This document shows positions 16,090-59,003 of a stretch of 64,000 nucleotides of DNA, piece after piece. The DNA comes from Cytophagaceae bacterium (GTDB lineage: Bacteria > Bacteroidota > Bacteroidia > Cytophagales > Spirosomataceae): assembly GCA_947450365.1 (NCBI GenBank), contig CANFVE010000001.1, positions 26,538 to 90,537 on the forward strand, written 5' to 3'. Made by a program: the position numbers and the translations under genes. Every line of letters begins with the position of its first letter. Positions within the stretch are counted from its first letter, which is position 1. The notes under the pieces were generated by a model. The model saw only the letters and a program-made list of their open reading frames with translations, had not been told where the DNA came from and did no database searches.

Positions 16090-16841
16090 TATTTTTCTGC
16101 CTGAATGAGGATGTAAGGCGCGAAGGCCTTGGTTTGGATGGGGAAAATTTTGAAGAATATTTTAAGGGGGAGCCAACAAGCCGTTTTAAGTATTTTTACC
16201 CACAGGGGCTGTTGTTTTTCATTTTCTAACCACAACATAAATCCACCTGAATAGCTTACCGAGATCTGTTTTAGGCCTAATTTTTCACATTGCCCGTGCA
16301 AAAAATTGATATCCATGCAAGGAATGTGGTGTTTGGCGTAATTTTGAGGATCAAATTGCCGTTGGAACCAGCCATTTAGTCCTCGAAAATTGGGCAAACT
16401 AACAAATAATTGTCCTCCTTTTTTTAAGTATTGAATGTGTTTGGACAGGATTTCTTCGGTATTCGGAAAATGCTCAATGAGGCCATTCGAAATGACTAAA
16501 TCAAACCAATGCAAACCTTGTCCGTCGGGAGCAAATAAATCCTTTTCCCATAGTTCAATCTCTGCGTTTAAATGGTTTGCTTTTTTTAAATCCTCCACGA
16601 TTTTGGGGAGGATGACAAAATCGAGTAGCGTGGATTGAACGCCTAACGCTTGGGTGGCCCAAACGGAATAATAGCCTGGGAAACCACCGATTTCGAGCAG
16701 ATTTTTAACTTGATGTGCCTGAATAGACTGTTTTAATTCACGCGTAAACGGGTAATTGGCAGGAATGGGGAAGGCTAGGCCCACTTTACTCAGCCAGTAA
16801 TTTTTCCAAAAATCGTAGTCGGTTAGCGCTTCTTGTTTCAT
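16089..16841 (-). CDS. Class I SAM-dependent methyltransferase
   Basis: LLEIGGFPG motif I, DLVISNGLIEHF, LKKGG. Confidence 0.82.
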   Translation of the reverse strand: MKQEALTDYDFWKNYWLSKVGLAFPIPANYPFTRELKQSIQAHQVKNLLEIGGFPGYYSVWATQALGVQSTLLDFVILPKIVEDLKKANHLNAEIELWEKDLFAPDGQGLHWFDLVISNGLIEHFPNTEEILSKHIQYLKKGGQLFVSLPNFRGLNGWFQRQFDPQNYAKHHIPCMDINFLHGQCEKLGLKQISVSYSGGFMLWLENEKQQPLWVKILKTACWLPLKIFFKIFPIQTKAFAPYILIQAEK

Positions 16842-18109
16842 TTCTTTTCAAAAATTTCGTGGAGCGTATGGGCGATTCGTTCGGCCGCATGTCCGTCCCA
16901 AAGTGGGGGAATACTGCCTTTTTTGACCTCGCCTGCTAAGATTTTTTCGAGGGCTTGGTAGGTTTTTTGCGGATCTAAATCGGCTAATAATTGGTTTGTG
17001 CCGAGGCTTACGGTCACGGGTCGTTCGGTCGAATCGCGGAAGGTTAAACAAGGGATTCCTAAATAGGTCGTTTCCTCTTGAATACCACCAGAATCGGTTA
17101 AAATAGCTTTGGCGTGACTCATTAATTGAATAAATTCCAAATAACCTAAGGGCTCAGTTAGGATCAGATTAGGAACGGCTTCCATGCGTTTCGTTAATCC
17201 AAATTTATCCATGTGGGCACGTGTGCGTGGGTGGATGGGAAAAACAATGTTGGTTTTTTGGGCGCTGAGTTCCATTAATTCTAGGATGGAATTGAGGCCT
17301 TTTTCGGTGTCAACGTTGGCCGGTCGGTGCATCGTCATCACGATGTAGTCCGAAGTCTGAAGTCCGGAGGCTGGGGTCTGTAGTCCGGAGGCCGGAGTTT
17401 GTAGGCCGGAGGCTGGAGTCTGTAGTCCGGAGGCCGGAGTTTGTAGGCCGGAGGCTGGAGTCTGTAGTCCGGAGGCTGGGGTCTGTAGTCTGGAGGCCGG
17501 AGTTTGTAGGCCGGAGGCCGAAGGCGAAAGGCCTAAGTCGGCGAGGATGGTGCTATTTTTCGCTTTTTCTTGATAGCGTACCAAAGAGTCGATCATGACA
17601 TTGCCGCTGAAAAATACTTTTTCATCGGGCACCCCTTCATTTTTTAAATGGGTGAGGCCACTTTCTTCGGTCACAAATAAATAATTGGCTACTGAATCTG
17701 TCAAAAGTCGGTTTAATTCTTCCGGCATGGTGCGGTCGAAACTTCGAAGTCCCGCTTCCACATGGGCGAGAGGAATTCCCATTTTGATGGCAACCAAGGT
17801 ACATGCGAGGGTCGACGTGACATCGCCTACCACAATAATAAGATCAGGTTTTTCATCCGCCACGATTTTCTCGAAAGCTAGCATGATAAGGGCTGTTACT
17901 TCCGTATGTGAGCCGCCACCGATGCCTAAAAAATAATCAGGTTTGGGTAATTCCAATTGGGTAAAAAACACATCGCTCATTTTGGCATCAAAATGCTGCC
18001 CCGTATGAACGATTTTGGAGGACCAACCCGTTAATTTTTGAATGGCTCGGTGTAATGGAGCGACTTTCATGAAATTGGGCCGCGCCCCGACTACCTGAAT
18101 AACTTTCAT
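16838..18109 (-). CDS. wecB: UDP-N-acetylglucosamine 2-epimerase (non-hydrolysing) with an in-frame tandem-repeat insertion
   Basis: VGARPNFMK, HTGQH, HVEAGLRS, PEELNR, DSGGIQEE, ERPVT; (ASGLQTP)x8 inserted before TMHRPANVD. Confidence 0.95.
   Translation of the reverse strand: MKVIQVVGARPNFMKVAPLHRAIQKLTGWSSKIVHTGQHFDAKMSDVFFTQLELPKPDYFLGIGGGSHTEVTALIMLAFEKIVADEKPDLIIVVGDVTSTLACTLVAIKMGIPLAHVEAGLRSFDRTMPEELNRLLTDSVANYLFVTEESGLTHLKNEGVPDEKVFFSGNVMIDSLVRYQEKAKNSTILADLGLSPSASGLQTPASRLQTPASGLQTPASGLQTPASGLQTPASGLQTPASGLQTPASGLQTSDYIVMTMHRPANVDTEKGLNSILELMELSAQKTNIVFPIHPRTRAHMDKFGLTKRMEAVPNLILTEPLGYLEFIQLMSHAKAILTDSGGIQEETTYLGIPCLTFRDSTERPVTVSLGTNQLLADLDPQKTYQALEKILAGEVKKGSIPPLWDGHAAERIAHTLHEIFEKK
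17348..17536. repeat. Heptamer tandem array (27 x 7 nt, 21-nt higher-order period) inside wecB
   Basis: plus strand reads GTCCGGA/GGCCGGA/GGCTGGA/GTCTGTA/GTTTGTA in register from 17348 to 17536. Confidence 0.97.
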
Positions 18110-18137
18110 TTAAAATATTTGTCGTGGATAATTCCTA

Positions 18138-18169
18138 CAAAGATAAAGGAAAAAGTTAGAAGGCCCGAA
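18138..18169 (-). promoter_or_regulatory. Putative wecB promoter (TTCG-N20-TATCTTTG)
   Basis: -7 box TATCTTTG at 18145-18138; near-consensus -33 TTCG at 18169-18166 within the terminal heptamer of the adjacent array. Confidence 0.5.
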
Positions 18170-18309
18170 GTCCGGAGGCGAAAGGCCGAAGGCATTAGTC
18201 CGGAGGCAAAAGGTGGGAGCCCGGAGGCGATAGGCCGGAGGCATAAGTCCGGAGGCAAAAGGTGGGAGCCCGGAGGCGAAAGGCCGAAGGCATTAGTCCG
18301 GAGGCGAAA
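18163..18309. repeat. Heptamer tandem array (21 x 7 nt, 49-nt higher-order period), left flank of the four-helix-bundle gene
   Basis: GTCCGGA GGCAAAA GGTGGGA GCCCGGA GGCGA(T/A)A GGCCG(G/A)A GGCAT(A/T)A repeated at 18198-18246 and 18247-18295. Confidence 0.95.
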
Positions 18310-18447
18310 GTTAAGTAGTCCGTAGGATTGAGTCGGCAAGTTGAATTTAAAGGATTTGTCAAAATTTCTATTTGGCGTCAAACTAAATTTAAATTATCAA
18401 CATATTGATACAATGAATTTTTTCCTTTTCGTTTTAAAAATTAAACA

Positions 18448-18816
18448 ATGGGGGTCACGAAGTTTGAAGATTTACACGTGTGGCAAAGATCTTTACAAAT
18501 TGCTGTAAAGATTTATCAATTAGTACAATCGAATAGGGATTTTGGATTTAAGGATCAAATTCAACGGGCCGTAACTTCTATTTCAAATAACATCGCAGAA
18601 GGTTTTGACCGAGGGTCTGATCGAGATTTTAAACGATTTTTGTTTATCGCACTTGCTTCTGCAAGTGAGGTACGGTCGCTCGTTCACCTTGGTAGGGAAC
18701 TTGGTTACCTAGATCATGAATCGCATAAACTTCTTGAAAAGGAATTAATTGAAATCAGATATATGATTAATGGCCTATCAAAAACATTAACTCGAACTTC
18801 AGTAAAAAAATTATAG
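18448..18816 (+). CDS. Four-helix-bundle protein (23S rRNA IVP / TIGR02436 family, Avd-like fold)
   Basis: FEDLHVWQRS, DQIQRAVTSISNNIAEGFDR, FKRFLFIALASASEV, LGYL: family hallmark pattern; 122 aa, AT-rich. Confidence 0.9.
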   Translation: MGVTKFEDLHVWQRSLQIAVKIYQLVQSNRDFGFKDQIQRAVTSISNNIAEGFDRGSDRDFKRFLFIALASASEVRSLVHLGRELGYLDHESHKLLEKELIEIRYMINGLSKTLTRTSVKKL

Positions 18817-18874
18817 GTATTTGTTTTCCATTTGATGAATCATGTAAAATACCTACTCGACAAAGAATATTTTT

Positions 18875-19035
18875 TACGGCCTCCGGACTTTCGCCTCCGG
18901 CCTCCGGACTTTCGCCTCCGGCCTCCGGACTTTCGCCTCTGGCCTTCGGACTTTCGCCTCCGGCCTTCGGACTTTCGCCTCCGGCCTCCAGACTTTCGCC
19001 TCCGGCCTCCAGACTTTCGCCTCCAGCCTCCGGCC
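18875..19035. repeat. Heptamer tandem array (23 x 7 nt, 21-nt period), right flank, inverted relative to the left array
   Basis: plus strand (TCCGGAC TTTCGCC TCCGGCC)n = reverse complement of the GTCCGGA/GGCGAAA/GGCCGGA units. Confidence 0.97.
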
Positions 19036-20255
19036 TAACGACTTGCGGCTCTCGAAGAATACCTAAACGCCGCCAAATAATTCCCCAACACCGTATGAAT
19101 ATTAATCTCATTCTCGATGATTTCTCGGGATTTATCACCCATCGTTTTGATCTTGTCAGGCTCATGAAACAGCCAGGTGATTTTGGCAACCAAATCCTCC
19201 AAAGACCCCGATTCAAAATAATGCCCATTGATTCCCTCTTTGACCAAGCGCTTCTCCGTCCCATCCGCCACCGAACAAATCACCGGCTTTCCAAAACACA
19301 TCGCCTCATTAATCGATAAGCCACCCATGCCGGCCAACACATATATGCCCGCCCCCAAACTTATCTTTCCTAATGCCTCGAGTTCATAAATTCCTCCCGA
19401 AAAATGTATATAATCCTCCGCATCCGCGGCCCGAACCTGCGCTTGCAAGGCCGCCATTTCAGGACCATCGCCCACGATTTCCAGCTCCGTTTTTGGAAAT
19501 TTCTTCTTTAGTTCAATCGCCGCCTGGATGAGTAAATCCACTTGTTTCCATTTGACGAGTCGGCCGACGTGCAACAATCGAAACGGATGATGATCCACCG
19601 TGCCCTCTGTTTCTATCTTCTTTAAAACCCTGAAAATTTCATCCGTATCCGGCGAATTGGCCGTCACAAAAACCTTTTCGGAAGGCACCCCATAACTCGC
19701 ATGTAAGGCTCTTGCCTCATCCAGATAGTTAATGTGCGCATCCACAAGATTTGAAAATATGCGCCGAGTTTCTCGCACGATGGCGAATTTCAATTTGGCC
19801 AATATCGAACTACTTTGCTGATGCGCCTGCTGATTTTCCGTGACACCACCCCCCGCAAGATAATAGTCGATCGCTTCTTCGTAATGGGGCACCTGGAATG
19901 GAATTTCCTTGGAAATCAACGCAATGTTTTGCGATCGTAAAAAGCGATACCAAAATGGATAAAAGACAAACGAAACTTGGTAAGGCCAATTGACCATCAA
20001 AATAGTTGGCTTCTCCTGCAGAATCAATTCCCGCAGCCCTTTGAAGAATTTTTTGCCATAATAGGTGGTGTATTCTTCTTGAAAAAAGACCTTAAATTCG
20101 ATGCCCGACTGGCTTTCAAATACCCCTGCTCCCAACGTCGCCCCATTTCCTTTTGGCGCCACAACACAGACTTCCACCCCAAAATCCTTTTGCAATTTGT
20201 TCAAAACCAAATTGTAATAATGGGGCAAACCACCGGCCAACAACATTATCTTCAT
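19035..20255 (-). CDS. Glycosyltransferase family 4
   Basis: LLHVGRLVKWK, VGDGPE, GMGGLSINEAMCFGKPVI. Confidence 0.9.
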   Translation of the reverse strand: MKIMLLAGGLPHYYNLVLNKLQKDFGVEVCVVAPKGNGATLGAGVFESQSGIEFKVFFQEEYTTYYGKKFFKGLRELILQEKPTILMVNWPYQVSFVFYPFWYRFLRSQNIALISKEIPFQVPHYEEAIDYYLAGGGVTENQQAHQQSSSILAKLKFAIVRETRRIFSNLVDAHINYLDEARALHASYGVPSEKVFVTANSPDTDEIFRVLKKIETEGTVDHHPFRLLHVGRLVKWKQVDLLIQAAIELKKKFPKTELEIVGDGPEMAALQAQVRAADAEDYIHFSGGIYELEALGKISLGAGIYVLAGMGGLSINEAMCFGKPVICSVADGTEKRLVKEGINGHYFESGSLEDLVAKITWLFHEPDKIKTMGDKSREIIENEINIHTVLGNYLAAFRYSSRAASR

Positions 20256-58676: not shown

Positions 58677-58705
58677 AAAAGCCTCCGATTCGGGGGCTTT
58701 TTTTT
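58677..58705 (+). terminator. Rho-independent terminator
   Basis: AAAAGCCTCCG-att-CGGGGGCTTTTTTTT after the permease stop. Confidence 0.82.
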
Positions 58706-58713
58706 GGGTGTGG

Positions 58714-59003
58714 TCTTTGGCAATCCTTTTCGATACGATTTGGGCGGGATCTTTGGCAATCCTTTTCGATACGATTTGGGCGGGATCTTTGGCAATCCTT
58801 GCCAATGAAATAGGAGGACATTTGGGAATGGCGAGGTTTGCCAAAGCCAACCTGGCGGGATTTACCTTTGTCAAACCTTGAACCTTTCGTGCTTTAGGAC
58901 TTGCCAGGTTTAGGATTGACAAAGGGGCGGGATTTACCTTTGTCAAACCTTAATACTTTCGTGTTTTAGGACTCGCCAGGTTTAGGATTGACAAAGGGGC
59001 GGA
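58714..59003. repeat. Composite REP/BIME-like cluster: 36-bp x2.4, one 60-bp palindrome, 72-bp x2
   Basis: identical 36-mers at 58714 and 58750; 60-bp CTTTGGCAATCCTT..AGGTTTGCCAAAG at 58787-58846; 72-bp units at 58854 and 58926 with arms CCTTTGTCAAACCT/AGGATTGACAAAGG. Confidence 0.9.

Follow-up and report, generated by a model that had tools for sequence, protein, structure and literature searches.

1. Introduction

Intervening sequences (IVSs) that carry an open reading frame (ORF) interrupt the 23S rRNA of Coxiella burnetii, Leptospira and others (PMC4990558). The Coxiella IVS lies in helix 45 and contains an S23p ORF, the 5′ side of this ORF is occupied by GACAGAT heptamers that vary in copy number, and the terminal stem of the IVS is cut by RNase III (PMC4990558). 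Tandem repeats of the same unit length have a different setting in Haemophilus influenzae, where 7-bp repeats lie within the promoter region of hmw1A and hmw2A and their number correlates with the level of mRNA (PMC2424069). The sigma-A promoters of Bacteroidota, for their part, are characterized by TTTG at −33 and TAnnTTTG at −7, and it has been noted that the −33 motif was not recovered by RNA-seq in F. johnsoniae (as stated in PMC7366714).

Here we consider a stretch of 64,000 nucleotides from the genome of a Cytophagaceae bacterium (hereafter the window), in which a long array of tandem heptamers adjoins the promoter of wecB. An earlier note on this DNA had proposed that the terminal unit of the array supplies the −33 box of that promoter and that the array may modulate transcription of the wecB operon, much as the Haemophilus repeats tune the hmw genes. 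What emerges from the analysis is that the array is one of two mirror-image repeat arms framing a small four-helix-bundle gene and that, while it adjoins the wecB promoter, nothing shows it to be a part of that promoter. We regard it as likely that an IVS-like cassette lies antisense between a glycosyltransferase gene and wecB, with the array as its upstream arm, and under this reading the “promoter repeat” becomes one arm of a defined element.

2. Comparison with Described Systems

With the ORF-bearing rRNA IVSs the element shares its ORF family (PF05635/S23p), the stem-forming terminal inverted repeats that enclose the ORF, the tandem heptamers 5′ of the ORF (in the IVSs, of a copy number that varies between strains), and a sporadic distribution that suggests horizontal acquisition (PMC4990558). 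It differs in its location, which is the defining trait of the IVSs: it lies antisense in a protein-coding polysaccharide operon and not in helix 9, 25 or 45 of the 23S rRNA. Moreover, its arms consist of whole heptamer arrays of ~150 nt, as against a stem of 28 bp in the IVS, and a role of RNase III at this locus is proposed by analogy.

The likeness to the hmw repeats is that of tandem 7-bp units found upstream of a surface-polysaccharide or adhesin-type gene, in arrays that may likewise vary in length. However, the hmw unit is homogeneous and sits inside the promoter region, whereas the units in the window are heterogeneous and lie upstream of the core promoter, and the array in the window also has a complementary partner array 560 nt away.

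The STRR of cyanobacteria are intergenic tandem heptamer repeats as well, and are comparable to the array in the window. For the TAACTGA repeats of Beggiatoaceae, Cyanobacteria and Bacteroidetes (PMC4679880) and the GGGNATC repeats (PMC4692102), the relevant passages of the two reports likewise describe intergenic tandem heptamers with lineage-specific units, which form long arrays in some Bacteroidetes and are missing from the orthologous spacer of close relatives, but in these same passages there is no mention of a PF05635 gene framed by a pair of inverted arrays. Our literature search for a link between a PF05635/S23 protein and heptamers returned only papers on DGRs and the Coxiella IVS paper, and no description of such a cassette outside rRNA. 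The element ties together three things that have long been unexplained: the intervening sequences of 23S rRNA, the four-helix-bundle family PF05635, of which Avd is a member, and the heptamer repeats of bacteria.

3. Organization of the Locus

The features of the region are given in Table 1.

Table 1. Features of the region between wecB and the glycosyltransferase gene, in coordinates of the window.
Feature	Coordinates	Strand	Remarks
wecB (UDP-GlcNAc 2-epimerase)	16838..18109	−	Pfam
Third array, with the unit family and polarity of the left arm	17347..17542	+	In frame within wecB, (LQTPASG)n
Conserved wecB core promoter block	18138..18158	−	TAACTTTTTCCTT, then probable −7 box TATCTTTG (18145–18138); in 15/19 relatives
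Degenerate, out-of-register terminal unit	18159..18168	+	Junction with ancestral sequence; homology to array-free relatives stops at 18158
TTCG proposed as −33 box	18166..18169	−	No better than chance
Left (upstream) arm of the IVP cassette	18169..18315	+	21 in-register AGKCNNN-type heptamers; pairs with the right arm along its full length
Two tandem 49-nt (7 × 7) blocks	18198..18295	+	46/49 identical; partial third copy at 18172–18197
Cassette leader (~135 nt)	18311..18447	+	Palindrome TATCAACATATTGATACAAT at 18395–18414
23S_rRNA_IVP (PF05635) four-helix-bundle gene, 122 aa	18448..18816	+	Pfam E 1.5e-32, profile 1–106/106; 2GSC, 2RLD
Right (downstream) arm	18877..19046	.	~24 NNNGMCT heptamers, 21-nt period
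GT4-family glycosyltransferase gene, upstream in the operon	19035..20255	−	Pfam

On the plus strand, the left array reads as NNNAGKC heptamers from 18159 onward, and the 21 in-register heptamers described in the earlier note are found in strict register at 18169–18315, the unit at 18159–18168 being one base off that register. The 49-mers at 18198–18246 and 18247–18295, which had been called near-identical, indeed agree at 46 of 49 positions; each is made up of seven different words, so the units of the array are heterogeneous, and TRF reports the array at 18172–18310 with a period of 49, 2.8 copies, 92% matches and a score of 250. The earlier note was also correct in setting this period apart from that of the other two arrays, for both of which TRF gives 21 nt: the right array (18877–19033) has 7.5 copies at 94%, and the third array (17354–17518) has 7.9 copies at 84%, with a 63-nt period at 89% in addition. 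All three arrays are far above chance expectation. The suggestion that each of them expanded locally and independently is supported by their different higher-order periods (49, 21 and 21/63 nt), and by the homologue of the right-arm start in the sister genome G030, which has about 7 units of different wording as compared with 24 in the window. The 49-nt period itself probably reflects a recent tandem duplication of a seven-unit block and not a feature of pairing, because shuffling the order of the units leaves the pairing energy unchanged (Section 4).

The PF05635 gene (hereafter the IVP gene) is present as a single copy in the window’s genome (2.66 Mb), and it is antisense to both the flanking glycosyltransferase gene and wecB. 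At the far end of the cassette, the terminal units of the right arm (AGTCGTT AGGCCGG) form the last codons of the glycosyltransferase gene together with its TAG stop (19035–19046). This junction is common to the sister genome G030; a second sister genome, G043, has a different and shorter C-terminus.

The palindrome in the leader, TATCAACATATTGATA, is followed by CAAT and lies ~35–50 nt 5′ of the IVP start codon. The arrangement TATCA-N6-7-TGATA(CAAT) is also found 5′ of IVP genes with three other arm types (loci L021, L024, L028–L030, L032–L035 and L038), and is absent upstream of IVP genes of the AGTCGCT type; the palindrome may serve the IVP gene as an operator or promoter.

We also considered whether wecB might have an N-terminal extension that runs through the array, and rejected this reading: the wecB frame is closed by a stop codon 5′ of its ATG (18109), and the ORF of 91 aa at 18106–18381 is in another frame. 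Rfam gave no match within 17200–19200.

4. Pairing of the Two Arms

When the sequence from 18150 to 19055 is folded to its minimum free energy, each strand separately, the left arm pairs solely with the right arm and neither arm pairs with itself; the plus strand forms 113 bp in this way and the minus strand 125 bp. The predicted stem spans 18161/19036 to 18315/18883, and thus encloses exactly the inserted DNA. The duplex energy of the two arms is −210 kcal/mol, compared with −120 ± 8 for shuffled arms. If only the order of the heptamer units is shuffled, the energy is −217 ± 8 kcal/mol, and since this kind of shuffling is without effect, the complementarity resides in the family of units as such. 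The arms are therefore complementary at the level of the unit and can form one imperfect stem of ~150 bp around the ORF, with ~76% Watson–Crick pairs across 143 aligned positions, a value below that of most relatives. Among the mismatches between arms in the wider sample of loci (Section 6), G-U and A-C combinations number 117 versus 95, without strand bias, and so do not specifically indicate that the sense RNA is under selection. Conservation of the AGK core, at a spacing of strictly 7 nt, exceeds what pairing alone would demand.

5. Presence and Absence of the Cassette

The distance from the glycosyltransferase stop codon to the wecB ATG is 91 nt in G043, 312 nt in G030 and 925 nt in the window’s genome. 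Over the 5′ region of wecB and its upstream block, G043 is 88% identical to the window and G030 is 91% identical, and on the wecB side the homology to both stops at 18158, which is the edge of the array. The gap in G030 holds unrelated hairpin elements and a short array whose homologue is the beginning of the right arm, and nothing else. In the window, the cassette takes up all of the gap between the stop codon of the glycosyltransferase gene and a point ~13–20 nt upstream of the wecB −7 box. No IVP gene is present in any of the 19 wecB loci fetched from relatives. A scan of genome contigs with the WecB N-terminus, in which the nearest named genera were Arcicella and Runella, returned one 90% match, a Bacteroidota MAG, that is likewise free of the cassette.

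A second site is provided by hemE. Twelve of the IVP loci that were fetched from relatives have the cassette between hemE and a divergent gene, and in the window’s genome this site is empty (G000:C1:19940–20010, ~6.5 kb before the start of the window; G000 is the window’s own genome). By its presence and absence at the glycosyltransferase–wecB and hemE sites, the cassette is shown to be an accessory insert whose presence varies with the site and with the species. In the window’s genome, with the hemE site empty, only 45 nt lie between the divergent promoter blocks, AGGAAAAAA...CAAAGGTA on one side and ATTTTTTCCT-TATATTTG on the other, and this spacer holds a small hairpin, GGCGCAGT...ACTGCGCC.

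6. The Same Architecture in Other IVP Loci

All 18 IVP loci that were fetched from the genus, representing three or more genomic contexts, share the arm–ORF–arm layout, the downstream array of each being complementary in type to the upstream one. The words that make up the arms vary by lineage (AGTCGCT; AGTCCGAAGGG...; TTAGTC with GC hairpins; TAGACGC/TGGACGT), and the arms of a given locus covary: when every arm is scored for complementarity against every other, the matrix is block-diagonal by arm type, with scores of 17–88 within a type, 7–28 (mostly 7–19) across types, and about 8–13 for shuffles. The IVP proteins encoded at genus loci with CCGGAGG-type arms have a similarity of 56–60% to the protein of the window, and those with arms of other types 49–52%.

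Beyond the genus, PF05635 genes are found in 92 of 121 genomes sampled evenly across the phylum, and arm complementarity is above that of every shuffle in 23 of the 30 IVP loci returned from this sample and in 51 of 67 testable loci from metagenomes, counts that describe a pattern and do not amount to a statistical test, as related genomes are not independent. The IVP relatives from metagenomes are 43–58% identical, and that scan contained none above 58% and hence no strain-level relative. Seven nucleotides is the dominant period in 33 of 50 loci, while some arms have a period of 8–9 nt. An AGT/AGG-type arm lies 5′ of the ORF in 47 of 51 loci, the four exceptions having units of the AGAC type. 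The median arm length in the wider sample is 31 nt, about one fifth of that of the ~150-nt arms in the window, and arms of such unusual length make the genus a good system in which to study arm function. Two homologues with solved structures, 2GSC and 2RLD, contain five chains of one sequence each.

In three of the genus relatives (L032–L034), the upstream arm starts directly at the start codon of the divergent neighbour (...GAGTCAT followed by ATTTAGTC...), and the leader and promoter of the neighbouring gene must therefore lie in or beyond the array.

7. The wecB Promoter

The sequence TATCTTTG, about 28–29 nt before the wecB ATG (18109), is probably the −7 box of the wecB promoter. It is a perfect TAnnTTTG, and TTTCCYTATCTTTGT is conserved ~29 nt upstream of the wecB ATG in 15 of 19 relatives, including those with short spacers. 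The resemblance to the Bacteroidota sigma-A promoter does not extend to −33, where TTTG is found at wecB neither here nor in the relatives, and the motif is barely enriched in this genome. The 4-mers at spacers of 19–21 in the window are TCGG, TTCG and CTTC, and the position is taken by CCTT or CCCT in the array-free relatives. The arrangement that the earlier note described on the minus strand, TTCG-N20-TATCTTTG, is present (18169–18166 and 18145–18138), and its −7 half is credible in view of the conservation in 15/19 relatives. As for the other half, the identification of TTCG as the −33 box did not survive, since this 4-mer is at chance level and relatives have CCTT/CCCT in its place.

The level expected by chance comes from 452 TAnnTTTG sites placed before ORFs in the window’s genome, taken as candidate promoters. 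TTTG occurs at a spacer of 19–21 in 6% of them (controls, 2–4%) and TTG in 13%; with at most one mismatch, TTTG occurs in 30%, versus 14–31% at control offsets, and in 21% of three-position windows inside the array itself. A search of the same candidates for a −33 motif at a fixed position returned only a weak enrichment of TTG/TTTG at spacers of 18–20. Upstream of TAnnTTTG, the 452 sites also show an A/T-rich signal with a period of ~10–11 nt, whose peaks, counted from the T of the box, lie near −6, −17, −28 and −38.

In filled hemE sites, each of the two −7 boxes has an array ending only 9–10 nt away from it, so that −33 is occupied by TTTC/CTTT in one arm type and by TCGA/TAGC/CTAG in another, as compared with CCCG in the empty site of the window’s genome. 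On this evidence, the region upstream of about −10 to −20 is free to take any of these sequences in promoters of the genus. Unrelated arrays have replaced everything upstream of this limit at several promoters, which amounts to a natural experiment on Bacteroidota promoters, and which argues that a −33 box is dispensable at the array-bearing promoters of the genus.

At wecB, all of the array is found 5′ of position −20 and of the ancestral block at 18138–18158, which is fixed, and a gain or loss of internal units would therefore leave the spacing between −33 and −7 unchanged. With the array outside the core promoter and the geometry indifferent to the number of units, the idea that array length tunes the wecB operon in the manner of hmw finds no footing here, and an effect of the array on wecB transcription seems unlikely. 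The conservation of the block instead suggests that wecB is transcribed from its own promoter, TTTTTCCTT-TATCTTTG; most likely wecB has kept this promoter and the array is its neighbour.

8. A Proposed Explanation and Its Alternatives

In the explanation that we favour, the cassette consists, in order, of an (AGKCNNN)n arm, a leader of ~135 nt, the PF05635 ORF and an (NNNGMCT)n arm. The arrays would grow by local block duplication until they reach constrained sequence; here they would be bounded by the stop codon of the glycosyltransferase gene and by the wecB core promoter, and at other loci by start or stop codons. TTCG would then be incidental, the array having grown up to the edge of the constrained promoter block. 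It is roughly an even bet that the paired arms act on RNA in the way that 23S rRNA intervening sequences do: a read-through transcript of either strand could fold the cassette into a stem-loop that is excisable by a double-strand RNase (RNase III), and excision by RNase III would separate the glycosyltransferase and wecB messages. The arms would work as a stem, and RNA is the likeliest level, at about even odds, because of the precedent within the family, the Coxiella 23S rRNA IVS (PMC4990558).

The explanation in which the terminal heptamer supplies the wecB −33 box and the length of the array tunes the operon, as in Haemophilus hmw, appears very unlikely. To its credit, TTCG-N20-TATCTTTG is present with a conserved −7 box, anything that RNA polymerase contacts upstream of about −20 is array, and the level of hmwA mRNA does correlate with the number of 7-bp repeats (PMC2424069). 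But the array-free relatives have CCTT/CCCT at −33; TTTG is found at N19–21 in only 6% of the 452 candidates, with near-matches equally common at control offsets; the motif was not recovered in F. johnsoniae RNA-seq (per PMC7366714); across −33, two unrelated types of array, or none at all, are tolerated at the hemE promoter and at the divergent promoter beside it; and, at wecB, the −33/−7 geometry is unaffected by the number of internal units, which are heterogeneous and so a poor substrate for slippage. Already disfavoured, and highly improbable, is the view that mere coincidence has placed the array, as a slippage-prone intergenic heptamer repeat of the ordinary STRR kind, beside the IVP gene. 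Arrays of heptamers that lack such a gene do exist elsewhere in this genome and in relatives, and heptamer repeats are known from Cyanobacteria, Beggiatoaceae and some Bacteroidetes (PMC4679880, PMC4692102), but coincidence is hard to reconcile with paired complementary arms in 18/18 genus, 23/30 phylum and 51/67 metagenome IVP loci, or with the covariation of the arms by locus type.

A stem may also matter as DNA. If the arms were to act as single-stranded DNA hairpins or cruciforms in insertion, excision or recombination, in an attC-like or REP-like fashion, the RNA stem would be a by-product; we consider this unlikely. Filled and empty sites at two loci (glycosyltransferase–wecB and hemE), the solo arm left in G030, the gene-less hairpin of like units at G000:C19:320–545, the lack of a G-U bias and the fixed polarity of the arms relative to the ORF would all fit. 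However, neither a recombinase nor a transposase gene is found within the cassette or next to it, target-site duplications and fixed junctions are not apparent, the distance from array to −7 box is 9–10 nt at hemE but ~13–20 nt at wecB, and differences in arm type between species at one site could also be due to turnover in place. It has also to be considered that the heptamers are iterated binding sites, or products, of an IVP pentamer or of a host factor, with complementarity being secondary, which we judge to be distinctly unlikely. Avd, a relative within the PF05635 family, binds nucleic acid, and this counts for such a role, as do the recurrence of an AGT/AGK core at 7-nt spacing in widely diverged cassettes whose other positions vary, the polarity fixed in 47/51 loci, and the five chains of one sequence in each of 2GSC and 2RLD. 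The way in which arm type tracks IVP similarity in the genus loci points in the same direction, but linkage alone accounts for it, and the 8–9-nt periods of some arms do not sit well with iterated sites. In its boldest form, which we think doubtful, PF05635 proteins would be the missing protein partner of bacterial heptamer repeats: an IVP pentamer would recognise, and perhaps generate or spread, AGK-core arrays, with the arms serving as its substrate in cis. Seeding by this family of units might then account for the in-frame array of wecB, the gene-less hairpin of contig C19 and the arrays at contig ends, each expanding until it met a coding or core-promoter constraint.

9. Related Arrays and Hairpins

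Arrays of the window’s unit family that have no IVP gene are found at G000:C19:320–690, G000:C43:1–167, G000:C56:7022–7090 and G000:C23:7390–7426. The part of the first that covers C19:320–545 is an inverted pair with a spacer of ~35 nt, forming a hairpin without a gene, and the array on C43 has a 14-nt period and ends its contig. One IVP-less array of this family abuts a TATATTTG −7 box.

Repeats of other kinds are present as well. At 58703–59002, the window contains REP-like hairpins built on TTTGGCAATCC...GGATTGCCAAAG, arranged in tandem units of 36 and 72 nt, and the same hairpins recur in the glycosyltransferase–wecB spacers of relatives (L002, L014, L015 and L019), where further short GC hairpins, GAGACGCGAA...CGCGTCTC and CCCTAGGCTAAAGCCTAGGG, are also found. 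Just past the end of the window, at G000:C1:96143–96359, lies an unrelated array with a period of 21/42/84 nt and the unit GATGTCAGCTGTATTCGTTTC.
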